Notes: generated from the letters alone by a model not told the origin. A DNA stretch of 64,000 nucleotides from a virus (IMGVR_UViG_3300048592_000443:5947-69946), one strand, 5' to 3'. Positions 31,008 through 52,278 are shown, counted from the first letter of the stretch. Numbers and translations: made by a program.

Positions 31008-31411
31008 TAGCGGGGCGGCACGAACTCCGGCCAGTGCCAGGTGCCGCCGGCCGGCGCCTCTGTTGCGTCGTGCCAGGCGACCGCAGTAAAGGGCGGCTCG
31101 TTCACTGGAAAGACAGTAAGCGCCTGCATAGTCACCTCGCCTACGCCCTCAGGCACGGTGAATGCCGGATCGGTGATGATTGCCGGAACATGCTTGTCGC
31201 CATACACGAAATGCACAACCCGACCCACGCTCGGAACCTGCTGCGGCTGACCCTGGTAGGGGTTTGCGATATTCTTCTCACTCACCTTGCGTTTCTCCTG
31301 TCGCTTTTTCCACTCATCAGCGGCATACAGCGCGTATGCCGGATCGTCACCCCGTCTGATGTGCCGATAGTAAATATCCTGCCAGGTGGAAGGGCGGCGC
31401 GACACTGTCAC
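31007..31411 (-). CDS. Conserved small phage protein (true start may be internal)
   Basis: PSVGRVVHF...AIIT...L.VF...WHWP pattern. Confidence 0.65.
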   Translation of the reverse strand: MTVSRRPSTWQDIYYRHIRRGDDPAYALYAADEWKKRQEKRKVSEKNIANPYQGQPQQVPSVGRVVHFVYGDKHVPAIITDPAFTVPEGVGEVTMQALTVFPVNEPPFTAVAWHDATEAPAGGTWHWPEFVPPR

Positions 31412-34263: not shown

Positions 34264-34538
34264 TGCGGTAACTCCGGCAATCCTTCACCTTTTTTCAGGC
34301 TTTCAATTGCAACTTGCCACGCCGCACGCCATATCATTTGATTGGAGTGCGGCATCTTGGCCGCATACGCTACAATGCAAGCGTCATAGGCTTTTACTTC
34401 CTCAAATGGCACGCCAAGGCATACCGCCTGATGCCATGTTTGCTCTTGATCTGCAAGCATTTCATACTGCGCACGTACATCAGCCGGTAAAACTCCCATA
34501 GACAGAGCAAGGCTTTGTAGTAATTTTCCGTGCATCAC
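34260..34538 (-). CDS. Hypothetical protein (lower GC)
   Basis: Overlaps both neighbours by 4 nt. Confidence 0.55.
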   Translation of the reverse strand: MMHGKLLQSLALSMGVLPADVRAQYEMLADQEQTWHQAVCLGVPFEEVKAYDACIVAYAAKMPHSNQMIWRAAWQVAIESLKKGEGLPELPQ

Positions 34539-35089
34539 TTCACCCTGAATGAAATCAGCGTGTCAACAAACGACACTTGCTCATATCTGCCGACAAGCAA
34601 TTCCTTGACGGCCTTATTGACGCCGTGCCAAACCTTGACTTTTTTCTCGTAATCATGAACGGCCATAATGCCGCCCGGCTTGATATGCCGTAACCAGATA
34701 GTAATATCGCCTTTGGCCTCGTGGTACTGATGGCCGCCGTCAACAAACACGAGGTCAACCGGGCCATACTCCCAACGCTTACCGACTTCCTTGCTATCAC
34801 CGTGGATTTGCGTATGGCGCGGGTCGCCCCAGAAGCCGGCCGATCTGAATACCGCTTCCTCGCCTTCCAGACAGCCAAAGGGGCTGCTTTCCTTCTGAAT
34901 GTCGATTGTGAAGAGCCTGAGATCGGGGCGCGCTTCCATAAAAGCCAGGCCTGATGTGCCGTTGCCGGCGCCAATGTTTACGATTGACGCATGCTCAGGC
35001 AGGGAGCGGGCCATCTCCTGTAGTGCGTCAACCTCGGCATGGGTCAGGTAGTTTGTCCAATCAACAACGCTATGTGCGGTATGGCCCAT
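34535..35089 (-). CDS. Class I SAM methyltransferase (Methyltransf_24-like, probable sugar O-MTase)
   Basis: NIGAGNGTS, DLVFVDGGH.Y, PGG.MAVHDY. Confidence 0.85.
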   Translation of the reverse strand: MGHTAHSVVDWTNYLTHAEVDALQEMARSLPEHASIVNIGAGNGTSGLAFMEARPDLRLFTIDIQKESSPFGCLEGEEAVFRSAGFWGDPRHTQIHGDSKEVGKRWEYGPVDLVFVDGGHQYHEAKGDITIWLRHIKPGGIMAVHDYEKKVKVWHGVNKAVKELLVGRYEQVSFVDTLISFRVK

Positions 35090-36280
35090 CTATGCCGCCT
35101 TTCGCATAACAAGCGAATTGACACCCTCAGTGATCACTTCCGCCATATAGGTAATGTCGCTTGCGGTCAAATCCTGGTGCGAAGCGACGTAAAAGCCGCT
35201 CCGGTTAACCCAGTCGGCAACCGGATAGTGCGACGGGTCGCACCAATCAGCATAGGCGGGCTGATTGGTAAGCGGCAACATCTCGCGCGTTTCAATGCCG
35301 CGCTCTTCTAGATACGCGCACAGCGCGTCTTTAGGCGCGTGCCTGATGACCAGGGGCAGCATCATAAAGGCATGGCCGGTGTGCGGTCGCACCTGAGGCA
35401 ACTGCAACAGGTCAGAGACAGGATTGAGCGCGTGGCACAGGGCCATGGCATTGGCCCGCCGCTGTGCGATCATCTCCTGCCAGGTTTCGAGTTGTGCGAG
35501 GCCTAAGGCCGCTTCTAGTTCGGTAATCCGAAACGAATGTCCGATGCGCTCAAAGCGAAAGCGCTTGCTGATGACTTCGCGCAACTCGGCGCCGCTCTTG
35601 CCGGCGTCGTCGTCAATCGCGATATAGATCCCATCGCGCCCGTGGTTGACGAGCGAACGCATCACGGCGGCGATCTCAGGGTCATTGGTTGTCGCGATGC
35701 CGCCCACGCCCGTTGTCAGCAGGTGCGCAACGTAGGTCGAAAAACAGCCTACGTCACCCCACGAGCCGGCCGCGCGCCCGTGGTGACTGACAAACATGCA
35801 TTCGCAACTATCCTCGATAACCGCAAGGCTGTGCTGTGCAGCGAGAGCCTGCACAGCCTTCATATCACACGGCATGCCGAACAGGTGTACCGGCAGAATG
35901 GCGCGCGTGCGCGGCGTGATGGACGCCTCAATCTGGCGTGCGTCAATGCCGTAGTAGCCTGGTTCCACGTCAACCAGCACAGGCGTCAAACGGCAGTGCA
36001 GCACAACATTAACGGTCGCAACAAAGGTGAGCGACGGCACGATCACTTCGTCGCCGTCTGCCCACCCGTGCAACTCTTTGAGGGTTTGCAGAGCTACTTG
36101 CAGACTTGAGGTGCCGCTATTCGATAGCACGGCATAGCGGCTATCGTGCAAGGCGGCGAACTGCTGTTCAAAAGCGCGCGACATGGGGCCATAGGAGATG
36201 CGCCCGCTGTCGAGTACCTGATTGACCAGCTCGCGCATGCGCTCAGTGGTGCGAAAGGTGCCAACGCCGATTTGCTTCAT
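35090..36280 (-). CDS. DegT/DnrJ-family PLP/PMP enzyme, ColD/E1-like 3-dehydratase type
   Basis: NSGTS.L, PVHLFG, IEDSCE; FSTYVAHLLTTG has His where aminotransferases have the catalytic Lys. Confidence 0.85.
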   Translation of the reverse strand: MKQIGVGTFRTTERMRELVNQVLDSGRISYGPMSRAFEQQFAALHDSRYAVLSNSGTSSLQVALQTLKELHGWADGDEVIVPSLTFVATVNVVLHCRLTPVLVDVEPGYYGIDARQIEASITPRTRAILPVHLFGMPCDMKAVQALAAQHSLAVIEDSCECMFVSHHGRAAGSWGDVGCFSTYVAHLLTTGVGGIATTNDPEIAAVMRSLVNHGRDGIYIAIDDDAGKSGAELREVISKRFRFERIGHSFRITELEAALGLAQLETWQEMIAQRRANAMALCHALNPVSDLLQLPQVRPHTGHAFMMLPLVIRHAPKDALCAYLEERGIETREMLPLTNQPAYADWCDPSHYPVADWVNRSGFYVASHQDLTASDITYMAEVITEGVNSLVMRKAA

Positions 36281-36546
36281 TGAAATCTGCCGCCTTCATG
36301 ACGTGTGCTTACGGGGGGATATACGGTTATGCGCTCACTAAGCGCCGCGATAATCAAATCAGCGCACCGCTCTGCCGAACTCCCTACTTCCGGTCGGATT
36401 GCATCAACGATGATGCGGCGCCATTCGCGGGTCAAATGCTCGTGCTGCGCCTCAATTGCCGCTTTCGCGGCGTCTCCGTACACATCGCCCATCTTATCAA
36501 CACGAGGAAGCCATAAAGTAAATCTTGTATTCATTCCACACCCCAC
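36277..36546 (-). CDS. Hypothetical protein
   Basis: Operonic overlap. Confidence 0.5.
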   Translation of the reverse strand: MGCGMNTRFTLWLPRVDKMGDVYGDAAKAAIEAQHEHLTREWRRIIVDAIRPEVGSSAERCADLIIAALSERITVYPPVSTRHEGGRFQ

Positions 36547-37241
36547 GGCTTAAGATAGCCGAGTGCGGTCAACTCGGCAACGTCTGACGGGTCAAGTTCG
36601 TCAAGTAGCAGTTTGGCACTATCGCCACCTCGAAATGCCAGGGTATGACGCACGGGCCATACCCGCGAACCGAGGACGATCATTTCGTCGCGCATCGCCC
36701 GTAGGCGCGGCGTGCCGTTTAACTCGACTTCCCATGGCGTCTCGCCCGGAATGAGCACACGGCGCAGGTTGCGCGGGCTCCAGATAGCGGTCATCAGCGA
36801 CATATGATACTGGCTCTCGGGGTCAGACCAGATCAGATCCAGATGACCGCACTTGCCGTAGAGGCTTGCGCCCTGCGCGTGTAGCCTGTCGCCGGTCAGG
36901 TCCATACGGCAGACGTAGCCGAACTGGCGGCAGTAGTCTGCGAGCATACGCACCGCCTCAACCTGCACCGGGCGCGTAATCCAGTAATCTTCGAGCATCA
37001 AGGCGAAGGGCTCGTCAGGGATGACGCTCAGGAGTTTCAGCAGCGCGTCTGACCAGCGGTTGACCGGATAGTCAGAGAAGGTGCCAAGGCTCAGGAAGTC
37101 GGCAAACGGGGGTAACTCGAAATCAGGCGACGTGAAGCCGCAGACTGTGACCGTCTGCCCCGGCCAGTATTTACCGAACAGCCAGAGAAACGGCCGCACG
37201 GCGGGAAGATATTTATCCGAGGTCATCACATACACGCGCAT
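36531..37241 (-). CDS. Putative GT-A-like glycosyltransferase
   Basis: S..Y...F.KYWP, WS..L, LMLEDYW, PWE.E motifs; cluster context. Confidence 0.55.
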   Translation of the reverse strand: MRVYVMTSDKYLPAVRPFLWLFGKYWPGQTVTVCGFTSPDFELPPFADFLSLGTFSDYPVNRWSDALLKLLSVIPDEPFALMLEDYWITRPVQVEAVRMLADYCRQFGYVCRMDLTGDRLHAQGASLYGKCGHLDLIWSDPESQYHMSLMTAIWSPRNLRRVLIPGETPWEVELNGTPRLRAMRDEMIVLGSRVWPVRHTLAFRGGDSAKLLLDELDPSDVAELTALGYLKPWGVE

Positions 37242-38188
37242 TAGCGAACACCTCTGTACCAATCGACGGTGCGTTGCAAGCCGTCATACAGGCTGAACAC
37301 GTGCGACCAGCCAAGCGCCTGCAAGCGCGATGCGTCACTGTAGCGCGCCGGGTCGCCTGGGTCGTAATCGCTCGCAAACTCGACAGTCTTATCAGTGCCG
37401 CACGCCGCCTGAATGAGTGTCACCAGCTCGCGAATGCTCACACAAGTTGCGCCGCTCGTGCCGATGTTATAGGCCTTGCCGTGCTCGCCGCGCTCCAGGG
37501 CTGTCAGCATGCCCTGCGCAACGTCGGCGACATAGATAAACTCGCGCCGCTCGTGACCTGAACCGTTGACGCGGATCGTCGCATCGTTCAGCGCCTTGCG
37601 AATGAGCGCCGGGATAACGTGCGCCCGCTCGTCAAAGTAGTCGCGCGGGCCAAAGACGTTTGACGGCCGCACAATGACGGCGTGCGCGAGATCTGCCCAC
37701 TCGGTAACGCGCTCACCAATCCGCTTTGACCAGGCATAGCCATTATTCGCGGCGTGCGGCTCGTCTCTGCGCCCGAACACCTCGTAGGCCGGCGCGTTGT
37801 GATCAGGCGAGTACACGCACACGGACGAGGCTTGCAGGACGTGCGGCACGCTGCGCACGGCGGCGGCAATCATCGGCACGGTCTGCAATCTGACGTTGCG
37901 CTCGAACATCAGTGCATGATTGTGCTGATTGTAGGCCACGCCCGCGACATAGGCAGCGAGATTGAACAGGGCGAAAGCGCCGTCAAGCGCCTTGGTCATC
38001 GCCCGCTCATCACCCGCGTCAACCCGGATCAGGCGAGAACCCGGCACGAACGTGCTGCCCCGGCTCATATCGTCAATGACCAGCACCTCGGCGCCCCGGT
38101 CAATCAGCAACTCGGCAAGTGCCGATCCGACCATGCCGGCGCCGCCCGTTACCACAACCCGCTGACCTGCGTAGAAATCAGGTGTCAT
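37241..38188 (-). CDS. NAD(P)-dependent epimerase/reductase, GDP-fucose synthase/ColC-like
   Basis: TGGAGMVG, SSVCVY, GYAWSK, N.FGP.D.F...HVIPALIRK, GSG...REF.YV.D. Confidence 0.88.
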   Translation of the reverse strand: MTPDFYAGQRVVVTGGAGMVGSALAELLIDRGAEVLVIDDMSRGSTFVPGSRLIRVDAGDERAMTKALDGAFALFNLAAYVAGVAYNQHNHALMFERNVRLQTVPMIAAAVRSVPHVLQASSVCVYSPDHNAPAYEVFGRRDEPHAANNGYAWSKRIGERVTEWADLAHAVIVRPSNVFGPRDYFDERAHVIPALIRKALNDATIRVNGSGHERREFIYVADVAQGMLTALERGEHGKAYNIGTSGATCVSIRELVTLIQAACGTDKTVEFASDYDPGDPARYSDASRLQALGWSHVFSLYDGLQRTVDWYRGVR

Positions 38189-41584: not shown

Positions 41585-41661
41585 GAATGGTATAATACGA
41601 GGCGTCAGGGCTGCAATCCCTGACGCCTCTTTCGTGGCCCTTGTGCAGAAAGGCCAGCCCC

Positions 41662-42228
41662 ATGAGTGTAGCATATCTCCCCGATCCGTCAATGACCGAG
41701 AAGCCCTGCAAGCGCTGCGGCGTCGTGCGCTCTGTTGACCAGTTCAACAAAGACAAGCGATACCGAGACGGCTATCAGTCCTGGTGCAAGCCGTGTTATG
41801 CCGAATATCACAACCAGCCAGCAGAGAAGGCGAAGCAGAAAGAGCGATACAAGAGGCGCTATGCTGATCCTGAATACAGGGATAAATATAGGATTAAACA
41901 GAATAAGCATTACCGTGAGCGCTGGCGGCAGGATCAAACTTTTAGGAAGCGAAAAAATGCTAGCAAGAGCATGTTTAACCATGCTCGGCGCACAATCGCA
42001 GCGCAAGGCGATCTTACTTTTGAGCAGTGGCAGGCAATATGCGCGTATTACGGTAATCAGTGTTTGTGTTGCGGCAGGCCCGAAATTACGCTTGACCATA
42101 TTAAGCCAGTGTCGCGCGGCGGAAAACATACCGCATCAAACGTTCAGCCATTGTGCAAGTTTTGTAACAGTAGCAAGATGACCAAAACGATTGACTATAG
42201 ACCTGACAAAGGCGCATGGATAGGCTAA
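41662..42228 (+). CDS. HNH endonuclease
   Basis: K.CK.CG...CK.C N-terminal Zn finger; CLCCG...TLDHI.P.SRGG.H...N.QPLC..CN.SK; low GC. Confidence 0.88.
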   Translation: MSVAYLPDPSMTEKPCKRCGVVRSVDQFNKDKRYRDGYQSWCKPCYAEYHNQPAEKAKQKERYKRRYADPEYRDKYRIKQNKHYRERWRQDQTFRKRKNASKSMFNHARRTIAAQGDLTFEQWQAICAYYGNQCLCCGRPEITLDHIKPVSRGGKHTASNVQPLCKFCNSSKMTKTIDYRPDKGAWIG

Positions 42229-42279: not shown

Positions 42280-43743
42280 CTACGACACGGGCGGGTAATA
42301 ACTCGGCGCATTCGAGGCGCCCGAAGTGTTGCCCCCGTTCGCCCAGTAGGGGCTCGACGGATCGTAGCTCCTGAGGTCATTGAGGCGGCTGTAGCGCACG
42401 TTATCGATCCTCGCCGCAAGGTACGGCGTGAGCAGCTTCAGGCGCGGCTCGGTGTAGGCAAGCACCTGCACACACAGGTTCGTCGGCGCCTTCTTCACCA
42501 CGAGGAAGCGGCCGTTGTCGGTCGTCTGGAAGAAGCCATTAGGCGCGAAGCGGGCGGCGTCCTGAGGCACGCCAATCGCATCGTAGTTGATGTACTCCAG
42601 GTACGTGACCGGCTGCCCGCCGAGGACCGTGAGCGGAATGAAGTAGATCGAGGCCTGCTGCACGCCGCCACCGATGGCCGTCTCGGGAATGCTGTCATCG
42701 ATGATGACCGGCACATTCTGCCCGAAGATCTTCAGGTGCGTCCCGGTGCGATTGGTCAGATCGCCGCGCATCTCGTCACGCATGCGGATCTGGTCGCCCG
42801 CGTCAATTCGCACCACGTCAGTGCTGCAACCATCGGTCAGGTACGAGCAGGGCCAGATGCGGGTGAGCTGGTAGAAGAGCGACTGAGGCATCGCGAGCAC
42901 CCAGCGCACCGGGGCGAGGTTGACGCGGGCGGCCAGATCCATCAGCACGTAGTAGGTTTCGAGGATCTGGGTCACGGCGGCGCTGCCCGCCGTCGCGACG
43001 TTCTGACCCGCAAACGACTTCACGATGCTGTCAGCGGCGGCACAGGCAACACCGCTCACCGCGTCCTGATAGCCCGTGTTGATCAGCTCGTTCAGGCCGT
43101 AGAACTCCTTATAGCCGCCGCCCGCGCTGTTGTTGGCCGGGTTGCCGGTGTAGATCTGCTGCGCGAAGTCGCGTGCCCACGCGACCATCCACGAGTAGAT
43201 CAGCCGGCCCGTGTTCGTGTTGGCAGACTGATTGATGTCAGTCAGGCCCGGCACCGAGGGCGTCCACGGGTTGCGGTTGGCGTTCGGCGTGTTGAACGGG
43301 TCGCCGTACACCAGGAAGTCACGATGCTCGCCACGCGACGCAAGTCGGGTGCCCTCCCTGATGTTGTACACCGAGGTCTGCCGGGCGAACAGACCGAGGG
43401 GAAACGACCGCTGGCAGAGCTTGGTCAGGCCAGTCGTGGGCGGGTCATCACAGAGGCCCGAGGCCTCGTTACCCGTGGTGTCGGTGACACCCGTGATGAT
43501 GCCATCAAGCGGGTCGGTGACCATTGTTTCGCGCACGGGCAGCACGAACTGAATGCCGCTGAACGGGGTGATCACCGTCGAGTACAACGGGCGCTCCAGT
43601 GCCGGATTGGCAAAGAGCCCGGTTGCCCCGTGGGCGTAGTTGGTATTCGGCGTGCTGCCGGCGGCCTTCATCGCCATCTGCCACATGCGGTTAAAGGCGA
43701 GATCGCTCACCTTCTCGGCAAGGGCGTTATCGCTCAGATACAC
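42280..43743 (-). CDS. Major capsid protein (probable)
   Basis: 487 aa, follows protease/scaffold, strong codon bias, GAGGAG RBS, followed by a terminator. Confidence 0.78.
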   Translation of the reverse strand: MYLSDNALAEKVSDLAFNRMWQMAMKAAGSTPNTNYAHGATGLFANPALERPLYSTVITPFSGIQFVLPVRETMVTDPLDGIITGVTDTTGNEASGLCDDPPTTGLTKLCQRSFPLGLFARQTSVYNIREGTRLASRGEHRDFLVYGDPFNTPNANRNPWTPSVPGLTDINQSANTNTGRLIYSWMVAWARDFAQQIYTGNPANNSAGGGYKEFYGLNELINTGYQDAVSGVACAAADSIVKSFAGQNVATAGSAAVTQILETYYVLMDLAARVNLAPVRWVLAMPQSLFYQLTRIWPCSYLTDGCSTDVVRIDAGDQIRMRDEMRGDLTNRTGTHLKIFGQNVPVIIDDSIPETAIGGGVQQASIYFIPLTVLGGQPVTYLEYINYDAIGVPQDAARFAPNGFFQTTDNGRFLVVKKAPTNLCVQVLAYTEPRLKLLTPYLAARIDNVRYSRLNDLRSYDPSSPYWANGGNTSGASNAPSYYPPVS

Positions 43744-43771
43744 GGTAGTAACTCCTCTGCTGTGTCGATTG

Positions 43772-43787
43772 GTGCGACAGGTCGCAC
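43772..43787. promoter_or_regulatory. Operator copy (perfect)
   Basis: GTGCGACAGGTCGCAC between scaffold and capsid genes. Confidence 0.75.
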
Positions 43788-43791
43788 GATG

Positions 43792-45027
43792 CTACGAAGT
43801 CAGACCCTCAACCCATGCGCCAATGGCATCGGCGGGGTGCGAGTAGGCCGGGGCGCCGCTCTTCTTTGTGACCTCGAACTTGTCAGGCGTCTCGACGGCG
43901 GCAACCGTGCGCCCGCTCTCACTGGCGACGGCGGCTGGCTGATCGCCCAGCAGTTCCGAGAGCTGATCGGTCAGGGTTTTCACCCTGGTCTGCGTCTCAG
44001 TGAGCGCGGCCTGAAGGGCTTCGATCTGCTCGGCCCGGCTCGCGTCTTTCTGAGACGTGCCGCTCATATAGCCCTTCATCTCTTCCATCATGGCGCCCAT
44101 CTTCTCGGCCATATTGAGCCGAGTATTCAGCGCCTTCATCTCAGAGGCCATGCCGCCCATTGCCACCTTGACGGCCTCGGCAACCAGAGCCTTGAAATCG
44201 CCGACGCTCATATCGCCGGCATAGTCCATGGCCTCTTCCTCGCCGTCGTCGCCCTCGGCCTCAGCCTCGACGACCTCAGCAGCGGCGGCCGGCTTGTCCT
44301 CGGCCTTGCTCTCTGCCATCGCCTTCAGGGCGGCGATCTGCGCTTCCATCTCGGCGATCTTGGTCGCGATCCCGTCATCCTTGAACCGCAGGCCGGCGGC
44401 TTCAGCCGTCTTTGTGGCACTGGCGGTGTACTTGCTGATCATGCTCTCAATCTCTCCCTGCGCGGCGGGATTGCCGTCAAGCAGAGCCTTGAGCGCTCGC
44501 ATCTGCTGCTCATTCACGCTGGTTGCTCCTGGAACGTAGAAGGCTGTGAGCGGGTTAGACACCCGGCCGTGTGGGGCTAGTGACCGCTCAAAGCGTCGAA
44601 TATGGGAAAACACTCCATCGGCGTCAGGCTCGCCTCTGGGGTGAAAAAAGCCGAGACTGATTGCCATATCGCCCGCCTTGCGGGCTACGGCCTCACCTAT
44701 CGCGTCGCTGGCAAATGTGCCGCTTTCGACCAGGAATGGCCCGCTCATCGCCGCGAAGTCACACCAGCCGAGGTCAACCCCTGGCCCCCATGGCTCGTCA
44801 AGGTTCGTCGGGTCCGGGTTGCCGCAGTGCCACCAGCGCAGCGGGCCATACAGCCCGTCTCTCGCCGTGCGCTCAACATCGGTCGCGAGCGCCTTGGTGC
44901 TAACAATCTCCCTGTCTTTGTCCTCAAAGCCATTCGAGGAAAAGGCGATCCATCGCAGCCCCTTTGCCGTTTTGTAGACGGCAAACGACGATGCGCTATC
45001 GGTTTTCGTGGCAATCAGGTCTGTCAT
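43792..45027 (-). CDS. Prohead protease-scaffold fusion
   Basis: N-domain D.D.E.V...L.WWH...S.GF...E.S; acidic coiled-coil C-half; upstream of capsid gene. Confidence 0.7.
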   Translation of the reverse strand: MTDLIATKTDSASSFAVYKTAKGLRWIAFSSNGFEDKDREIVSTKALATDVERTARDGLYGPLRWWHCGNPDPTNLDEPWGPGVDLGWCDFAAMSGPFLVESGTFASDAIGEAVARKAGDMAISLGFFHPRGEPDADGVFSHIRRFERSLAPHGRVSNPLTAFYVPGATSVNEQQMRALKALLDGNPAAQGEIESMISKYTASATKTAEAAGLRFKDDGIATKIAEMEAQIAALKAMAESKAEDKPAAAAEVVEAEAEGDDGEEEAMDYAGDMSVGDFKALVAEAVKVAMGGMASEMKALNTRLNMAEKMGAMMEEMKGYMSGTSQKDASRAEQIEALQAALTETQTRVKTLTDQLSELLGDQPAAVASESGRTVAAVETPDKFEVTKKSGAPAYSHPADAIGAWVEGLTS

Positions 45028-45033
45028 GGGTGT

Positions 45034-47067
45034 CTACCTGCGTCGTCTGGCCTCAACGGCGGCCCGGCGCTCCGCTGTTGCCCGCTCGCGCGCCATGCGG
45101 TTGCGCGCATCCTGCAACGCCGCCTGATAGCCGCGCACGTCGCCGCGCTCTAATGCCGTCAGCGCACGCCTGCCCTGGTCAGTCGCCTCGCCACCGCTTG
45201 TGAAACCGAGCCGAGCAAGCGCATCGTTGCCGCCGCCTGTCTCGGCCGCAGCGCGCAGGGAGCTGTAATCATCAGGCGAGATGCCAACCTTGCGCGCCGT
45301 ATCGCGCGCCGTCGCCCGCCGATCCTGGTCGCGCCGTATGGCCCGCTCATCTGCGGCCGGCTTTGCTTGTTTCGGCTTCTCAGGTGAGTTGCGCGGGCCG
45401 CCAGACGAGCCGCCACTAGCAGGGCGTGCGTTGCCGGCGGGGCTGATGTTGCGCAGGGCGTTCGTATTGTTCTTTGACGGCTTCTCGTCTTTGCCCTTGC
45501 CGCCCCCGCCGCCCTTCTTTGGCTTGGCTTCCTTCGGATCTTTCCCTTGCTCTTTGGCGTTGCGCGCTGCCTCACGAGCCGCCCGGCGCTCCTCAATCTC
45601 GCGCCGCCGCTGTGCGCGCTGCTCACCCCTTCCGAGTGCGTCACGCGCCTTGCTCACATCGCCCGTTCGTGCCGCCGCGATATACGACCGGCCGGCGCCG
45701 CTGATGCGATAGGAGCCGTCAGGGTTTTTCTCGACAAGCCCTTTGGCGAGCAAGGCTTCAGCGTTCTGCGGTGCAAGGGTGATATTTTCGTCAGGGCTGG
45801 CAAATTCGAGCAAGGCATCAGACAGACTGGCGCCAAGGCCGGCGCCATCGCCTACAGCCTTTTCATTCTCGCGCCGCTTGGCGTCGCGCTCGGCTTCACG
45901 CTGCGCCTGCTTTGCAAGCCGCTCTTGCTCTTTCTGTGCGTCTGATTTCTTCGGCTTACTGCCTTTGCTGCCACCCTTCTTTGGCTTCTTTTTCTTATCG
46001 GGGAAGCCGGACAGGTCAAGTTTGAACGGCTTTGACCCACTGGCGCTACCTGCGCTGGTGAACTTGCCATCGGCGCCACGTTTCAGATTGCCGCGAATAG
46101 TCTCGCCCGCGCGAGCGCTATACCCGCGCCCACCGCTCGGCGCAGGGCGGCCGCTCGCGCCCTCATCGCTTTCGGCTTTAAGCGCGGCGGCAAGGCGCCG
46201 CTGTGCTGACTTGCTCTTGCGCGCAACCCGCTCAGGCAGGCGACGAAACGCGGCCGTATCGCCCGTCTCATCTGCCCAGCGCTCTGCGAACGGCTGACCT
46301 GTGCTAAAAGCCCATCTTTGCTGAGCGCGAGAGGCGAACGGCTTGGTTGTGATAGCCGGCGCTTTTTCTGTCGAAATTTCTCCAGCCATATGCGGCGCAA
46401 GCGGCTGCTTGCCGAGTAATGGCAGATCGATGCGCTCACCAGCCCATACCAGACTGATAGCCTCAAAGCGCAGCGGCGTGCGCTTGCGCTCCAGTCGCGG
46501 CATAGGCGTGCTGGCAGGCAGGTAGCACAACGTAATGTGCGGCGTGAAGCCGTAGCGATCTTCCAGGGGGATAGCAAGTCCCGAAGCGCGCATATACACC
46601 GCTTGCCTGAGCCAAGGCAACTGCGGGCTATTCAGGAGCATCACGAGCGGGTATTGCTCGTCATCGCCGGCAAAGGCGCCGTAGCCGTTGACTGCCACCT
46701 CAACCGGCTCGGTCATACTTGCCAGCACGGCAAGCGACGAAAGCAGGGCCGCCTTGCGGTCCTCAATCGCCGCCGCGTCCTGAGCCAGATAGATCAGGGT
46801 GCAGTGGTCTGCCTCTTTGGCGAGGCGCCCCGGTATGCCTTCGGTAATCTCGGCTGTCTGCTCAGGAGTGAGCATCAGCGCGAGCATTGCACCGGGATTA
46901 GCGTCAGGGTCAATCTGTACTGCCTTATACACCTGCGCCGCTCGCGCCTTCTCCGCCCGTCGCTGTGCTGACTTGCTGCGACGCCTGCCCATAGCACTAA
47001 GGGCGGGATTGCTGAACAATCCGCCCGGCCCGTGTGCATAGTTCGTATTTGGCGTCGGATCAGTCAT
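45034..47067 (-). CDS. Head-module protein with 2H phosphoesterase (LigT/Acb1-like) domain and basic low-complexity tail
   Basis: HCTL and PHITL motifs about 90 aa apart; N-terminus copies a capsid peptide; RGADGKF motif. Confidence 0.8.
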   Translation of the reverse strand: MTDPTPNTNYAHGPGGLFSNPALSAMGRRRSKSAQRRAEKARAAQVYKAVQIDPDANPGAMLALMLTPEQTAEITEGIPGRLAKEADHCTLIYLAQDAAAIEDRKAALLSSLAVLASMTEPVEVAVNGYGAFAGDDEQYPLVMLLNSPQLPWLRQAVYMRASGLAIPLEDRYGFTPHITLCYLPASTPMPRLERKRTPLRFEAISLVWAGERIDLPLLGKQPLAPHMAGEISTEKAPAITTKPFASRAQQRWAFSTGQPFAERWADETGDTAAFRRLPERVARKSKSAQRRLAAALKAESDEGASGRPAPSGGRGYSARAGETIRGNLKRGADGKFTSAGSASGSKPFKLDLSGFPDKKKKPKKGGSKGSKPKKSDAQKEQERLAKQAQREAERDAKRRENEKAVGDGAGLGASLSDALLEFASPDENITLAPQNAEALLAKGLVEKNPDGSYRISGAGRSYIAAARTGDVSKARDALGRGEQRAQRRREIEERRAAREAARNAKEQGKDPKEAKPKKGGGGGKGKDEKPSKNNTNALRNISPAGNARPASGGSSGGPRNSPEKPKQAKPAADERAIRRDQDRRATARDTARKVGISPDDYSSLRAAAETGGGNDALARLGFTSGGEATDQGRRALTALERGDVRGYQAALQDARNRMARERATAERRAAVEARRRR

Positions 47068-47127
47068 ACAGCAAAAGCCGCCTATCTCAGTCGAGACAGG
47101 CGGCAAAGCGCGCGGGTGATTGATTTG

Positions 47128-48534: not shown

Positions 48535-49101
48535 CTAGGAAATGGTCAGCGTGAGTGTCACTTGCAGCGTGGTTGCGCTCGTCTTCGTCCCCAGACTGGA
48601 AACAAGGCGGTTCAGCATCGTACCAAGCTCGGTTGTGAAGTTTGGCCCGTCGTTGAAGAGCGCCGCTTCCTGAATGCTGAAATTGCCCTCGGACGCGCCG
48701 AATGTGCAGCGCCAGCTCATTGTCTGGCCTGAACGCGAAGGAAAGGTCGCATCCATTGCGGCTTTGACCTTGTTTGTCACTGCCTGCAAATCGGTTTGCC
48801 CGGCCGCCGCCGCCGTGTTGCTATCGCCAATGCCGATGTACGCATTGCTGTTGTCATAGACCGTGCCGCCCGCGCCAATCAGCAGATCCAGCATCAACTG
48901 AATGCCGACATTGACGAGCAGGTTATCAGCCTCGTACACTTCGACGGGCGCCCCGGCAAGGCCCTGGTCAATCTCCTCTGCCGTCCAGCCTCCTGCATAG
49001 TACGCTGCCTGCCAGCGACCCTTGACCGTCAGACCCTCGTGAAGCCCGGCGCCGATCTGCGCGCTCACACTCTCGCCGCTCTTACCCTGCTCGCTGATCA
49101 T
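48535..49101 (-). CDS. Virion structural protein
   Basis: NLLVN.G...IGIGD...A..QTDL...F...E.N..I.EAALFN pattern common in phage fibre/decoration genes. Confidence 0.65.
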   Translation of the reverse strand: MISEQGKSGESVSAQIGAGLHEGLTVKGRWQAAYYAGGWTAEEIDQGLAGAPVEVYEADNLLVNVGIQLMLDLLIGAGGTVYDNSNAYIGIGDSNTAAAAGQTDLQAVTNKVKAAMDATFPSRSGQTMSWRCTFGASEGNFSIQEAALFNDGPNFTTELGTMLNRLVSSLGTKTSATTLQVTLTLTIS

Positions 49102-50297
49102 GATGCACTCCTGAGTGTGACAGTCGCGCTAGGATTGCGCGCCGTCACGGTTGCTGATACCTGTTGCACCGTGAGTGTTGCCGAAGGCGCAGCGCGGTCA
49201 GTCACCCGCCCTGTAATCCGCCGTGTCGTAACCGTTGCGCTCGGCATAGTCGTGCGAACGGTCGCACTGCCGGGCAAGGCTGTAACCAGGGGCGGGAAGA
49301 TGCTGATGCCGTCAGCCCCGGCCCCCGTCTCCGCAAGAGCCGCCGCGTACAGTGCCGAGATAGCGTCAAGACCGGCGCCTGTCTCGTCAAGCGTAGCACC
49401 CGGCACGGCTGAAACACTATCGGCGCCTATGCCCGTCTCGACAAGTCCAGCCGAGTAGGCGCCCGCCGTCGCATCTGCCCCTATGCCGCTCTCAGCGGGC
49501 TCAGAAGCGTTTGCCCCTGCGGCGGTGTCACTCCCTGCCCCCGCATCGCTCAGAAGCCCGGACAGCGCGCCTGAGAGGCCATCGGCGCCCGCGCCACTCT
49601 CGGCAAGGGTTGCCAGGTATGCGGCGCCCGCCGCATCGGCGCCGGAACCCGTATCCGGCGCGGTGACAGCTCCGGCACCGCCCGCCGATACGTTGTCACC
49701 CCCTGCGCCTGTCTCTGCCAGGATCGCGAAGAACGCGCCCGCTACGGCGTCACTGCCGACGCCCGTATCGTCAAACGCGGCGCCCTGCTGTGCCGAGAGC
49801 GCATCAGCCCCGCTGCCAGCCTCTACAAGCGTCCCTGCGTAGGCGCCCCCTGCCGTATCACTCCCGGCGCCCGTCTCGTCGCTCTCCGCCCCGCTCAGCG
49901 CGCTCAGCGCGTCAACGCCGGTGCCTGTCTCGGCGATGGTCGCAACGCCCGCCCCGCTTGCGGCGTCTGACCCGGCGCCACTCTCGTCAACCGTCGCCGC
50001 CGAGACAGCGGTCGCGGCATCAGCGCCGCCCCCTGTCTCGGCATAGGTCGCGCCGTGTTGAGCGGCAAGCGCATCTGCGCCAGTGCCCGTATCAGCGAGC
50101 GTGCCCGCAGAGGCCCCCGAGACGGCATCTGCGCCGCTTGCCGTGTCTGCGAGGGTCGCAGCGTAGTCCCCGGCGCCTGCGTCGGCGCCAGATCCCGTAT
50201 CATCGGCCTGCGCCGACTGCGCATCTGCCCCGCCGACAAATCCTGCGCCGACTGCCTCGTCGTCGTCATCGCCGCCGATGTAGAGTGCGTCACTCAC
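49098..50297 (-). CDS. Ala/Gly/Asp-rich repeat protein (about 19-aa tandem repeats)
   Basis: About 16 copies of (L/A)(A)(E/D)(T/S)G.G.DA. Confidence 0.75.
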   Translation of the reverse strand: MSDALYIGGDDDDEAVGAGFVGGADAQSAQADDTGSGADAGAGDYAATLADTASGADAVSGASAGTLADTGTGADALAAQHGATYAETGGGADAATAVSAATVDESGAGSDAASGAGVATIAETGTGVDALSALSGAESDETGAGSDTAGGAYAGTLVEAGSGADALSAQQGAAFDDTGVGSDAVAGAFFAILAETGAGGDNVSAGGAGAVTAPDTGSGADAAGAAYLATLAESGAGADGLSGALSGLLSDAGAGSDTAAGANASEPAESGIGADATAGAYSAGLVETGIGADSVSAVPGATLDETGAGLDAISALYAAALAETGAGADGISIFPPLVTALPGSATVRTTMPSATVTTRRITGRVTDRAAPSATLTVQQVSATVTARNPSATVTLRSAS

Positions 50298-51357: not shown

Positions 51358-52278
51358 ATGACGCAACGGCTTTGCGGACAATGCGAACAGCCATTCACGC
51401 CTAGAAAAAATTATTCTAAAGAGCAGCAGGCAAAGCAGCGGTTTTGTTCTGGCGACTGCGCCAGAAGGGCCAATGCATTGCTTGCTAAAGGTAAGAAGCC
51501 TCGCATCAAAGGTAAGCCGTGCGAGCGTTGCGGGCGCATTGGCTATGATCGAGTCAATCCGATTTGCCGGTATTGCCAAAAAGAATTGCGTGATCCAGGA
51601 GGGGAGCGTAACCCGAAATGGCGCATTACTCGCCGTGTTTACTGGAACGACGAAAAAGATGCGGTGCTGAAAGAGCACTATTCGACTAAAGGCGCTGAAT
51701 ACTGCGCCAATCAACTTGACATTAGTGCTCAGGCTGTGCGTTGCCGCGCCAATAGACTTGGCTTGCGTTTGACGAAAGACGCCACTAAGCGCATTGTCAA
51801 CGCAAAAGCCAAAGAGTATATGATAAAACACAATCCTATGAAAAGAGATGAAGTCAAAGAAAAGGTTAAAAAGTTTTATAATGAGCATCCAGAAACAAGA
51901 GAGGCTGTTAATGCAGCATTGCATCGTGGACAGGCCGAGTTGCAACGCCGCAAGGTGAGTAAACTCGAATTGGCTTTGCGTGTTATCCTTGACGGCTTTG
52001 GCGTTTCTTATGAAGCTTCCGTAGAGATTAAGCCGAATTTTATTGTTGACATACGCATTGGTCAACTGATAATTCAAGCCGATGGCGATTACTGGCACGG
52101 CCATTCGCGTTTTGAGCCGCTCACCGAAAGGCAGCAAAAACAAAAGCAGCGCGACGCAGCCCAGGATGATTACTTGCGCGCTTGCGGTTATACTGTTGCG
52201 CGTATATGGGAAAGCGATATGAGCGCTGATAGTGTTTTGCATATTCTGGATATCCATGCTATACCGCGCGCGGCCTAA
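51358..52278 (+). CDS. Free-standing endonuclease with Vsr/DUF559-like C-domain
   Basis: VDI....IIQADGDYWH...D..QD..L...GY.V.RIWE; Zn fingers; low GC; antisense insertion with own TGCTATAAT promoter. Confidence 0.82.
   Translation: MTQRLCGQCEQPFTPRKNYSKEQQAKQRFCSGDCARRANALLAKGKKPRIKGKPCERCGRIGYDRVNPICRYCQKELRDPGGERNPKWRITRRVYWNDEKDAVLKEHYSTKGAEYCANQLDISAQAVRCRANRLGLRLTKDATKRIVNAKAKEYMIKHNPMKRDEVKEKVKKFYNEHPETREAVNAALHRGQAELQRRKVSKLELALRVILDGFGVSYEASVEIKPNFIVDIRIGQLIIQADGDYWHGHSRFEPLTERQQKQKQRDAAQDDYLRACGYTVARIWESDMSADSVLHILDIHAIPRAA

Follow-up and report, generated by a model that had tools for sequence, protein, structure and literature searches.

Why should a phage protein with an enzymatic domain open with a copy of a peptide that also stands near the start of the putative capsid protein? 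The question is raised by a stretch of 64,000 nucleotides (the window), part of an uncultivated phage record, in which three genes follow one another on the minus strand: a cargo protein, an S78-like protease-scaffold and a putative major capsid protein (MCP). The first-pass annotation of the window had read the peptide as a candidate tag for loading an anti-defence enzyme into the capsid. The features are listed below with their basis in brackets.

47077..47104, minus strand: GC-rich hairpin, 12-bp, with a short U run (folding against shuffles)
45034..47067, minus strand: cargo ('polyvalent') protein, 677 aa (open reading frame; Pfam and PHROGs matches; homologues; module map; pI)
46999..47067, minus strand: copy of the MCP motif, cargo residues 1-23 (BLASTP; six-frame search; N-terminal in homologues P0122-P0126 and P0144)
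46462..46842, minus strand: 2H phosphoesterase domain, cargo residues 76-202 (Pfam PF13563)
45028..45036, minus strand: cargo/protease junction, TAG stop (45036-45034) plus two codons (fused forms known in relatives)
43792..45027, minus strand: prohead protease-scaffold fusion, 411 aa (invariant residues; ESM Atlas)
42280..43743, minus strand: putative MCP, 487 aa, of an unannotated family (synteny; AlphaFold model; ESM lead)
43597..43668, minus strand: MCP motif, residues K26-L49 (conserved block common to MCP and cargo proteins)

A peptide shared by two genes of the window

Residues 5-23 of the cargo protein (47055-46999) match residues 31-49 of the 487-aa protein (43653-43597) at 16 of 19 positions (BLASTP, one protein against the other, E 3e-7), which bears out the match that the annotation had reported. 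When all 1,257 six-frame segments of the window (94,692 residues) were searched with the first 70 residues of the 487-aa protein, the cargo N-terminus came up at E 4e-7 and the runner-up at E 3.1; within this six-frame scope the window holds only two copies of the motif. The reported synonymous difference at 10 of the 16 identical residues was reproduced by script, with the same codon at the other 6 of 16, and across 11 cognate pairs of cargo and capsid copies the codon is shared at 56 of 150 identical residues. Since synonymous codons differ to this extent, the motif is selected at the peptide level. A match by chance, or a recent functionless copy of the DNA through gene conversion, would suit a short stretch with many Gly and Pro residues, but this explanation is refuted by the sequence evidence, namely the E values from the whole six-frame window, the scrambled synonymous sites and the occurrence of copies at no fewer than 5-7 points of the MCP tree, and it is extremely improbable.

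Translation of the cargo protein most likely starts at the ATG at 47067, upstream of the peptide as had been assumed, because five homologues begin with the same peptide; their residues 1-60 are 76-84% identical to those of the window cargo. The public gene call for the window cargo begins at Met61, downstream of the motif. No clear Shine-Dalgarno sequence accompanies ATG 47067, and a strong hairpin lies just ahead of it, ending 10 nt before the ATG inside the 60-nt gap behind the upstream gene. The hairpin folds at -31.9 kcal/mol (z -4.5), a value equalled by 0 of 200 shuffles, and its position before the start codon suggests low or regulated expression.

Identity of the three proteins

The cargo protein consists, in order, of the N-terminal MCP-like motif, a basic stretch, a 2H phosphoesterase domain, a conserved middle module (phrog_1375) and a long basic C-terminal region. 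The two HxT motifs on which the annotation had based the 2H assignment are well supported: residues 76-202 match PF13563 (2_5_RNA_ligase2) with 36.2 bits against a cut-off of 27 (E 7.5e-9), and all four residues of H88-C-T90 (46798-46806) and H177-I-T179 (46531-46539), namely H88, T90, H177 and T179, are invariant in 17/17 aligned 2H-bearing homologues. On this alignment, the 2H catalytic motifs are intact. The long basic tail was likewise recovered, with a pI of 10.5 for residues 301-677 and of 10.1 for the whole protein.

The proposed link to Acb1 fared less well. Acb1, the anti-CBASS 2H phosphodiesterase, resembles the window domain in being 2H-type, phage-encoded and equipped with two HxT/S motifs, but differs in being a small protein that is made after infection and is not known as a virion component. 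In Pfam, the window cargo gave no match to the Acb1 profile PF23474 at E <= 0.01, and the homologue P0136 scores 22.7 bits, below the cut-off of 27. A sequence search of solved structures at E <= 10 returned only two unrelated TALE-repeat chains (E 0.35 and 9.2). Assignment to LigT/RNA 2',3'-cyclic phosphodiesterase was rejected on scores of 18.7 bits against 23.3 for PF02834 and 17.1 against 65.7 for TIGR02258.

Among 33 cargo homologues, 10 are stand-alone and 23 are fused: the partner is the protease-scaffold, which follows the cargo, in 16, and an HK97-type (PF05065) MCP in 7. The homologues share a common backbone that carries 2H, ADP-ribosyltransferase, DdrB-like ParB (P0135), DUF6582 or DUF7218 modules, and judged from these arrangements the 2H domain is one swappable module. 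Because relatives are fused to the protease-scaffold (16/33) or to an HK97-type MCP (7/33), the cargo protein is very likely head-internal, in agreement with the packaging that the annotation had envisaged. Alternatively, the cargo may be a cytoplasmic late protein that binds the protease-scaffold or MCP and times or limits head assembly, while its 2H domain repairs or processes RNA in the infected cell. Occurrence of 2H domains in RNA repair and end healing (PMC5512222, available sections) and the strong hairpin ahead of the start codon would suit such a role, but the same backbone is placed inside the assembling head by the fusions, and the homologue modules, such as the ADP-ribosyltransferase of P0136 and the DdrB-like ParB of P0135, are typical of injected effectors; a cargo that stays in the cytoplasm is thus very unlikely. 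In Arthrobacter phage Kovu, a 2H protein of the head module shows no likeness to the capsid protein of that phage (best E 0.72).

The ATG of the protease-scaffold at 45027 is in frame with the cargo stop, two codons on. An S78-like protease domain occupies approximately residues 11-178 (44494-44997), and the C-terminal half is coiled-coil and matches coiled-coil chains only. The ESM Atlas leads to Peptidase_S78 (features 0.95; structure TM 0.54-0.60 over residues 11-178), and Pfam returned no match for this protein. H67 (44827-44829) and S124 (44656-44658) are invariant in 35/35 sequences, and we infer from this a catalytic role for both candidate residues.

For the 487-aa protein there are at least 644 homologues, all of them unnamed and lacking Pfam domains, and its family comprises 746 clusters among 1.84 billion representatives. 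In 77 of 83 unique related loci, a protease domain is encoded no more than 3 kb upstream of the MCP, and in the window the MCP gene is directly downstream of the protease-scaffold. An AlphaFold model (pLDDT 75.3, pTM 0.74) contains a hairpin at residues 70-86, a 23-residue helix at 177-199 and then helices and sheets, an order that by eye is compatible with the HK97 fold. The language-model lead is SU10_MCP, obtained with ESM in 35% of one cluster. Profile comparisons with SU10 MCP and with the PF05065 fusions were negative. Among 37 MCP members, Pfam returned no capsid family and ten stray single-member matches (E 0.045-0.39, ceiling E 1), and PHROGs matched 0/37. On synteny, the AlphaFold model and the language-model lead, 43743-42280 is therefore assigned as a putative capsid protein. 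A phage collection contained no match to the MCP or the protease-scaffold, and no cultured relative was found there.

Conservation of the MCP begins at K26, behind a variable leader of approximately 25 aa in which residues 5-21 are predicted to form a helix. P32, H38, G39, G42 and L43 are invariant in 37/37 MCPs and, across these sequences, the motif is the most conserved N-terminal motif of the MCP family and its hallmark. In the AlphaFold monomer model, residues 20-59 have a pLDDT below 50.

Distribution, co-variation and placement of the motif

Of 84 unique related phages, 10 have a second copy of the motif, among them a doubtful one (L047, 12.1 bits), and L012 and L136 also carry a second copy but stand outside this count. 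All second copies lie upstream of the MCP on the MCP strand, where they open a stand-alone cargo or form an internal part of a cargo-protease polyprotein, and score 12-43 bits; every other match scores at most 5.9 bits. The second copy is absent in 74/84 related phages, so heads of this type do not generally require the signal.

The motif co-varies with the cognate MCP partially and unevenly, most clearly at its most variable position. Cognate pairs share 13.64 of 22 residues and non-cognate pairs 11.42, and the observed value was reached by 0 of 20,000 permutations. At the most variable motif position of the MCP (N46 in the window), where 11 loci show 7 different residues, cognate agreement is 6/11 against 0.05 for non-cognate pairs, and at position 48, which is A or G, it is 11/11 against 0.67. 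In L033, the otherwise invariant His is lost from both copies. The expectation that the tag tracks its cognate capsid held for the window, L033, L136, L151 and L156, where no other cargo copy matches as well as the cognate one, and failed for L010 (11 better), L089 (10), L012 (7), L011 (5) and L062 (2), so that best-match co-variation is seen in about three of six lineages. Counted from the conserved His (MCP H38), the copies share a class signature of Ala at -1 (11/11) and Gly at +12 (10/11), and shared identity stops sharply past Leu (L49), with 0/11 identical at +12 and +13. This signature and sharp end fit a single old origin followed by co-evolution better than recent copying.

Co-variation with the MCP would also be expected if, as the annotation had proposed, the cargo N-terminus mimics the MCP N-arm; it would plug into an N-arm site of the lattice, such as one left free around the portal vertex, and anchor the enzyme to the inner head wall. 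Consistent with this, the MCP motif lies between the predicted helix (5-21) and the folded body, in the segment that is unstructured in the monomer model, and low pLDDT is expected of an arm that becomes ordered only against a partner. Met1 of the stand-alone cargo aligns with the residue after MCP K26, approximately at the start of the conserved block. In phage 80alpha, docking at the N-arm within the procapsid is known: look-alike short elements of the scaffolding protein and of SaPI1 CpmB compete for the N-arm region of the MCP (PMC5644958, available sections). Unlike the window peptide, CpmB mimics the helix-and-hook at the C-terminus of the scaffold and not the capsid protein, and it alters capsid size and loads no enzyme (same sections of PMC5644958). 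Mimicry of the N-arm is nevertheless unlikely: in a complete lattice these sites are filled by capsid subunits, the interior polyprotein copies would need prior cleavage, the protease-scaffold is equally possible as the partner, and the MCP fold, and with it the label 'N-arm', is itself a prediction.

The placement of the motif differs between stand-alone and fused homologues: it is present in 7/10 of the former (absent from P0135, P0143 and P0149) and 5/23 of the latter (Fisher p 0.013, with kinship ignored), the fused bearers being 5 of the 16 protease-fused forms. In 48/77 related loci, over 150 residues of the reading frame precede the protease domain. The window and L083, both stand-alone and with the motif, group on the MCP tree as sister to the fused, motif-free L005 and L006 (support 99). 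P0122-P0126 carry the motif N-terminally and P0144 carries it close to the start; these homologues differ in their module sets and show 43-72% identity to the window cargo in the alignment. The motif occurs without a 2H domain in P0124, P0126 and P0144, and in P0136 it is interior, between the 2H and ADP-ribosyltransferase domains, which contradicts the earlier idea of a tag made for the 2H enzyme. In L010, L012, L062, L136, L151 and L156, the motif is in frame with the protease domain and upstream of it (in L012 the order is 2H, DUF6582, motif, protease), and in P0138, P0141, P0145, P0147 and P0148 it likewise stands ahead of the protease. A motif inside a protease polyprotein may serve for processing or recognition no less than for docking.

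Taken further, the motif may be a processing site only, recognized and cut by the S78-like prohead protease: the MCP would shed its leader, polyproteins would separate their N-terminal domains from the protease, and the copy in a stand-alone cargo would be a remnant of a gene split or a trimming site, with loading by something else, for example the basic C-terminal backbone. The layout of these six loci and five homologues fits this reading, as do the interior copies, which retain the Lys that precedes the motif in the MCP (8/11 at -12) and stop sharply at Leu, followed by Gly and basic residues. Co-variation, too, would be expected if the protease co-evolves with its sites. However, a motif at the extreme N-terminus has nothing in front of it to remove, and P0122-P0126 keep it in just that place despite wide divergence, as P0144 does close to its start. 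The family's polyproteins mostly lack such a site (the 74 of 84 loci with no second copy), and a conserved block of 24 residues is long for cleavage alone. A role in processing only is therefore doubtful.

A proposed head-assembly signal and its closest known counterparts

On balance, the motif is probably, though far from certainly, a head-assembly signal common to MCP and cargo, by means of which the cargo is loaded. The 677-aa protein would then be a head-internal 'polyvalent' cargo with a conserved basic backbone and swapped effector modules, here a 2H phosphoesterase. In most relatives, the backbone is the N-terminal part of the protease-scaffold polyprotein and is proposed to enter the procapsid because it is joined covalently to the assembly core. 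In the window lineage, the backbone is a separate gene, whose product opens with a copy of the approximately 24-residue motif (conserved Lys to conserved Leu) that stands behind the leader in every MCP of the family. A partner that handles the N-terminal arm of the MCP during procapsid assembly (the protease-scaffold, or else the capsid lattice at its inner face) would also bind the cargo. The cargo would be co-assembled, possibly trimmed by the protease, and would then stay in the head until it passes with the DNA into the next host, where the substrates of the 2H domain may be 2',3'-cyclic phosphate or 2'-5' linked RNA ends, or else nucleotide signals. The motif in 5/16 protease-fused homologues and in the six polyprotein loci, where loading is already assured, speaks instead for processing.

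In encapsulins, enzymes of various kinds are docked to the inside of an HK97-fold shell by short peptides at their termini, and we know of no such cargo-loading peptide that copies a segment of the shell protein. Similarly, the capsid targeting sequence (CTS) of phage T4, which is removed by the gp21 protease, is to our knowledge not copied from any motif of a T4 capsid protein. In the available sections of the cited papers, the CTS is described as the sole common feature of the T4 internal proteins (PMC3012670) and, in IPI-III and Alt, as a short N-terminal peptide that sends defence-countering proteins into the scaffolding core of the prohead (PMC3012670, PMC9024508). Like the CTS, the motif heads proteins that otherwise differ in their modules (P0122-P0126 and, near the start, P0144); unlike the CTS, the window peptide copies the conserved motif of the MCP, co-varies with it and can be interior in homologues.

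In phage P1, the N-terminal 30 residues or fewer of DarB suffice to load a reporter into the capsid, and a resemblance of this signal to the P1 capsid protein is not mentioned in the available sections (PMC9024508). DarB, of the Dar anti-restriction system, is a large anti-defence protein whose packaging signal is N-terminal, and the cargo homologue P0135 has a DdrB-like ParB domain, whereas the phage type and the head proteins differ between P1 and the window.

Polyvalent proteins, as described by Iyer, Burroughs, Anand, de Souza and Aravind (2017; PMC5512222, available sections), are multi-domain proteins encoded beside head genes, with domains shuffled between orthologues. Their 2H phosphoesterase modules occur in fusions with MuF or portal domains and are proposed to be RNases or degraders of nucleotide signals; assemblin-like peptidases are 'always at the C termini', and packaging and injection are predicted for the polyvalent proteins as such. 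Packaged 2H polyvalent proteins have thus already been predicted in print; the available text of that paper describes no capsid-derived motif, and the capsid-copied signal seems to be new. The window cargo and its homologues fit the polyvalent description in their shuffled unrelated domains and in a gene directly upstream of the protease-scaffold and MCP. Unlike the polyvalent type, the window cargo lacks a C-terminal peptidase, which is encoded as a separate gene, whereas this feature is present in 16/33 of its homologues.

Gene order and the putative capsid protein family

The virus record is uncultivated, 69,946 bases long and of an estimated completeness of 79%, and the window takes in its bases 5947–69946. 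The structural block lies on the minus strand and reads as follows, with the three genes of interest placed after a block of small genes.

Features of the structural block
57459–55415, minus: small and large terminase (PHROGs and Pfam)
55318–53630, minus: weak portal candidate (phrog_146, E 5e-4)
Between the portal candidate and the three genes of interest, minus: block of small genes, of which some have a weak match to tail fibres
47077–47104, minus: 12-bp GC-rich hairpin with a short U run (−31.9 kcal/mol, z −4.5), ending 10 nt before the cargo start
47067–45034, minus: cargo protein, 677 aa
45027–43792, minus: protease-scaffold, 411 aa
43743–42280, minus: putative major capsid protein (MCP), 487 aa

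Two genes sit on the opposite strand within this block and are probably homing endonucleases: an HNH endonuclease at 41641–42228 (PF01844, phrog_1035), and an ORF at 51358–52278 with weak PHROGs matches to an endonuclease and a D5-like regulator. The minus strand also carries a 399-aa ORF at 49098–50297 that is built of loose repeats and consists almost entirely of Ala, Gly, Asp, Ser and Thr; TRF found no tandem DNA repeat in it, and no family match was obtained. At 31408–38188, again on the minus strand, lie sugar-modification genes that include a 951-aa double glycosyltransferase, a DegT/DnrJ-type aminotransferase and an ORF labelled epimerase-like from a reading of its sequence rather than from a search match.

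The MCP belongs to a large family, with at least 644 relatives at E ≤ 0.001 among the candidates scored and 746 clusters at 50% identity among 1.84 billion representatives. None of the 120 relatives listed carries a Pfam domain or any name other than 'hypothetical protein', and for 37 members Pfam returned only stray single-member matches (E 0.045–0.39) and no capsid family, while PHROGs matched 0 of 37. By sequence, the sole solved-structure match to the MCP was one acetyltransferase chain (E 0.24), neither the MCP nor the protease-scaffold found a match in the cultured phage collection, and single-protein scans for close relatives found none. Three lines of evidence point to a capsid protein. 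The window, like 77 of 83 unique related loci, has this gene after that of the protease-scaffold; the AlphaFold model (pLDDT 75.3, pTM 0.74) has an order of elements that, by our reading, is compatible with the HK97 fold; and the nearest named cluster in the ESM Atlas is SU10_MCP, only 35% of whose members carry that family. Because profile comparisons by hhalign were negative, giving a probability of 0.5% for the PF05065 fusion proteins and 0.1% for the SU10 major head protein, the identification of the 487-aa protein as the major capsid protein is held to be likely and no stronger. The analysis thereby brings to light a large unannotated, likely capsid family together with its cargo-protease-scaffold polyproteins.

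The first ~25 residues of the MCP vary in sequence and length among 37 aligned members, and conservation sets in from Lys26. The conserved block reads Lys-x-x-Ser-Thr-Pro, next three residues that vary, and then Tyr-Gly-His-Gly-Pro-Gly-Gly-Leu-Phe-Ser-x-Pro-(Gly/Ala)-Leu, and Pro32, His38, Gly39, Gly42 and Leu43 are invariant in the alignment. Distant members have a degenerate block, and its core pattern occurs within the first 120 residues in 103 of 134 full-length representatives. A leader helix occupies residues 5–21 of the predicted model and residues 20–59 are unstructured, as would be expected of an arm that becomes ordered only against a partner.

Copies of the capsid motif upstream of the capsid gene

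The first-pass annotation had reported that the N-terminal peptide of the cargo protein is repeated in the capsid protein, and this was confirmed: the peptide recurs at residues 31–49 of the 487-aa ORF with 16 of 19 residues identical (BLASTP E 3e-7), and 10 of those 16 residues are encoded by different codons in the two copies, as it had also stated. The window yields 1,257 six-frame segments, 94,692 residues in all; a search of these with MCP residues 1–70 recovered the cargo N-terminus at E 4e-7, with the next match at E 3.1. The window holds two copies of the motif only.

Capsid alignments were used to fetch 161 loci from related phages, and all of their six-frame segments were searched with a small motif profile. 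Among the 84 unique capsid loci whose upstream sequence extends for 3 kb or more, the window included, 10 have a second copy, scoring 12–43 bits; that of locus L047 is doubtful (12.1 bits). Two further loci, L012 and L136, also carry a copy and fall outside the 84-locus count on account of their short contigs. Every second copy lies upstream of the capsid gene on the same strand, and all other matches score 5.9 bits or less. In the window, L083 and L033 the copy opens a reading frame of its own; it stands in the protease frame, upstream of the protease domain, in L010, L012, L062, L136, L151 and L156; and in L011 and L089 the segment bearing it and the protease segment overlap in different frames. 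The overlapping segments run over 5157–5691 and from 5605 on in L011, and over 4548–5709 and from 5627 on in L089, which reflects either two overlapping genes or a frameshift in one polyprotein, whether programmed or due to faulty assembly. Directly before the interior motif of L136, L151 and L156 there is a small Cys-rich element, with two close Cys residues and a Tyr-Thr-Cys some 15–20 residues further on, which may bind zinc. On the capsid tree, the copy-bearing loci occupy at least five to seven places.

Over 22 aligned positions, the cargo (or upstream) and capsid copies of the same phage share 13.64 residues on average, versus 11.42 for non-cognate pairs, and 20,000 permutations never attained the observed value, a figure that overstates independence since the sequences are related to one another. 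The test comprised 14 pairs, three of them paired by inference, and the 11 locus pairs alone gave the same result. The main seat of the signal is the position of Asn46, the most variable of the motif in the MCP, where cognates agree in 6 of 11 pairs versus 0.05 of non-cognates, with His/His and Pro/Pro pairs here within a single clade. At the two positions after Asn46, agreement is 8 of 11 versus 0.45 and then 11 of 11 versus 0.67, and in L033 an otherwise invariant His is replaced in both copies. The tracking of the cognate capsid is partial. The copy finds its best partner in its own capsid protein in the window, L033, L136, L151 and L156, but not in L010, L011, L012, L062 or L089, and the cognate-specific signal is carried by about three of six lineages.

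The upstream copies also form a class of their own. Unlike the capsid copies, they have Ala before His in 11 of 11 cases, and in 10 of 11 the final Leu is followed by Gly; immediately past this Leu, identity between cargo and capsid is 0 of 11. Synonymous sites are scrambled, with codons held in common at 56 of 150 identical residues. Together with the cognate co-variation, these comparisons speak for an old duplicate that selection would have held similar to its capsid partner, and against recent copying or chance.

The cargo protein and its neighbour

The first-pass annotation had read the cargo protein as a 2H phosphoesterase, of the family that includes Acb1 and LigT, docked into the procapsid by its mimic of the capsid N-arm. 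A 2H domain is indeed present at residues 76–202 (PF13563, 36.2 bits against a cut-off of 27), and its two HxT motifs are unchanged in all 17 homologues aligned. The link to Acb1 and LigT was not borne out, since the domain falls below the Pfam models of both and below the NCBIfam cyclic phosphodiesterase model. What had been observed holds, and the interpretation is supported in part. The 677-aa protein has no solved-structure match by sequence. After delivery, possible substrates of the 2H enzyme would be RNA ends, 2'-5' links and cyclic nucleotide signals.

Besides the window's own entry, 33 homologues of the cargo protein were found, in three architectures.

Architectures of the cargo homologues and occurrence of the motif
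Upstream part of a fusion with the protease-scaffold: 16 of 33; motif in 5, and weakly in one more
Joined, together with a protease-like part, to an HK97-type (PF05065) capsid protein: 7 of 33; motif in 0
Stand-alone: 10 of 33; motif in 7 (P0122–P0126, P0144 and P0136)

The gene calls of P0122–P0126 begin with the same peptide as the window's cargo protein, P0144 has the motif at residues 10–27, and P0136 has it at residues 179–196, between its 2H and ADP-ribosyltransferase domains. The cargo backbone consists of a middle module matching phrog_1375 and a long C-terminal region of pI 10.5. P0124, P0126 and P0144 carry the motif and lack the 2H domain, and the constant part is therefore the basic backbone, in which the 2H, ADP-ribosyltransferase and DdrB-like ParB domains and several DUFs are exchangeable inserts. 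The homologues fused to PF05065 capsid proteins (P0127–P0131, P0142 and P0146) are single polyproteins of 824–1041 aa that run from the 2H domain through a protease-like part and coiled coil to the capsid protein, and so place a head-assembly line and an enzyme in one gene, with a capsid family other than the window's.

A profile scan of IMG/VR for cargo relatives yielded six loci, in all of which the cargo protein is fused to the protease and the second motif is absent; in the four where the capsid gene lies within the fetched stretch (L166, L168, L169 and L171), it belongs to the same MCP family. The search for a cargo protein that copies its capsid in another capsid family was negative for Arthrobacter phage Kovu. 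With cargo residues 1–60 alone as the query, only four close homologues were returned. In L015, L016, L112, L115 and L161, a 2H domain is found at the C-terminus of a 680-aa protein encoded ~5.6 kb upstream of the capsid gene and separate from the protease polyprotein (Pfam match in L015), which may be a portal or MuF-type fusion of the kind described in PMC5512222. In a wastewater contig (X5), a relative diverged by ~12%, 487 different bases replace 55 at 46352–46408, just after the 2H domain, an insertion that fits the extra module at the same place in P0123 and P0125.

The window's public gene call for the cargo protein starts at Met61. The ATG at 47067 is without a clear ribosome-binding site and stands behind the strong hairpin at 47077–47104, and in a wider fold the cargo AUG is partly paired. 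This ATG is nonetheless taken as the start, because five homologues are called from the motif, cargo residues 1–60 are 76–84% identical to theirs, and P0136 and P0144 also have the basic stretch that follows the motif. The predicted hairpin could terminate transcription of the genes upstream or slow translation of the cargo; none was seen upstream of the L083 cargo gene. In the freshwater data set from which the window comes (X1), one contig is identical across 46804–47092, and a second matches upstream and diverges exactly at the cargo start codon (47067/47068), where an apparent start of another gene follows; this looks like a mosaic breakpoint at a gene boundary. Among the 14 runs listed no RNA set was found, and the contigs testify only to presence.

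For the 411-aa neighbour, Pfam, PADLOC and NCBIfam returned nothing meaningful, and several lines mark it as a putative protease-scaffold fusion. All 35 relatives have His67 and Ser124 unchanged, residues 11–178 resemble Peptidase_S78 in the ESM Atlas by features (0.95) and by structure (TM 0.54–0.60), and the C-terminal half has coiled coils as its only solved-structure matches.

Possible roles of the motif

Because proteins carried in the head are active before any phage gene is expressed, they settle the opening minutes of the struggle against host defences. To our knowledge, the packaged proteins of most phages cannot be told from sequence.

The backbone protein would belong inside the head and would usually arrive there as part of the protease-scaffold polyprotein. 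As a separate protein it would need a ticket of its own, which would be the arm motif of the capsid protein, recognised by whatever recognises that arm during assembly. This simplest account is favoured because the motif is enriched in the stand-alone forms (7 of 10, versus 5 of 23 fused forms; p 0.013, uncorrected for kinship) and because, on the capsid tree, the window and L083, with a separate motif-bearing cargo gene, are sister to L005 and L006, in which the cargo is fused and the motif is absent. The motif also looks like a processing site, judging from its surroundings: it occurs within some polyproteins, with the conserved Lys in front of it and Gly plus basic residues behind, which counts against a pure loading role. 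Loading and processing may be one and the same role, in that a protease-scaffold docking on the motif would cut beside it and keep hold. Three options are considered here: the binding partner could be the protease-scaffold; it could be the capsid lattice, as the first-pass annotation proposed; or the capsid protein or the cargo protein could be cut after Lys or after Leu. A complex prediction for the protease-scaffold with cargo residues 1–60 scored 0.07 against a mark of 0.32 and weighs neither way on binding.

A motif copy that acts as a loading signal would give a sequence rule for finding head cargo in uncultured phages, its fixed address would explain the free swapping of effector modules behind it, and the motif would serve as a handle for loading chosen proteins into HK97-type particles. 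A bolder reading, which we regard as rather unlikely, is that the portable, co-evolving copy of ~24 residues from the capsid arm is at once an address label, a polyprotein cut mark and a pseudo-subunit arm reaching into the lattice or core. If this were true, any enzyme could be swapped in behind the motif, as 2H, ADP-ribosyltransferase and ParB modules already have been, and the label could be read from the capsid gene in metagenomes and would lead to the injected proteins of uncultured phages.

The cargo protein and its homologues, with their basic backbone and exchangeable inserts, match the polyvalent proteins of Iyer and co-workers, which that paper describes as probably packaged and injected, with 2H domains fused to MuF or portal proteins and assemblin-like peptidases at their C termini (PMC5512222); an injected 2H enzyme is accordingly not new as an idea. 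The nearest functional analogues of the motif are the capsid targeting sequence of T4 and the N-terminal signal of P1 DarB (PMC3012670, PMC9024508), and look-alike elements that compete for the capsid N-arm region are already known from phage 80alpha and SaPI1 (PMC5644958). Within the literature searched, as far as its texts were available, no loading or processing element was found that copies the capsid's own conserved motif and co-varies with it, and the string HGPGGLF was absent.

At the junction of the two genes (45027–45036, minus), the cargo TAG stop and the protease-scaffold ATG lie two codons apart in the same frame, an arrangement with odds of one in three by chance. Since relatives have the cargo and protease-scaffold fused, any read-through of this stop would recreate the fusion.
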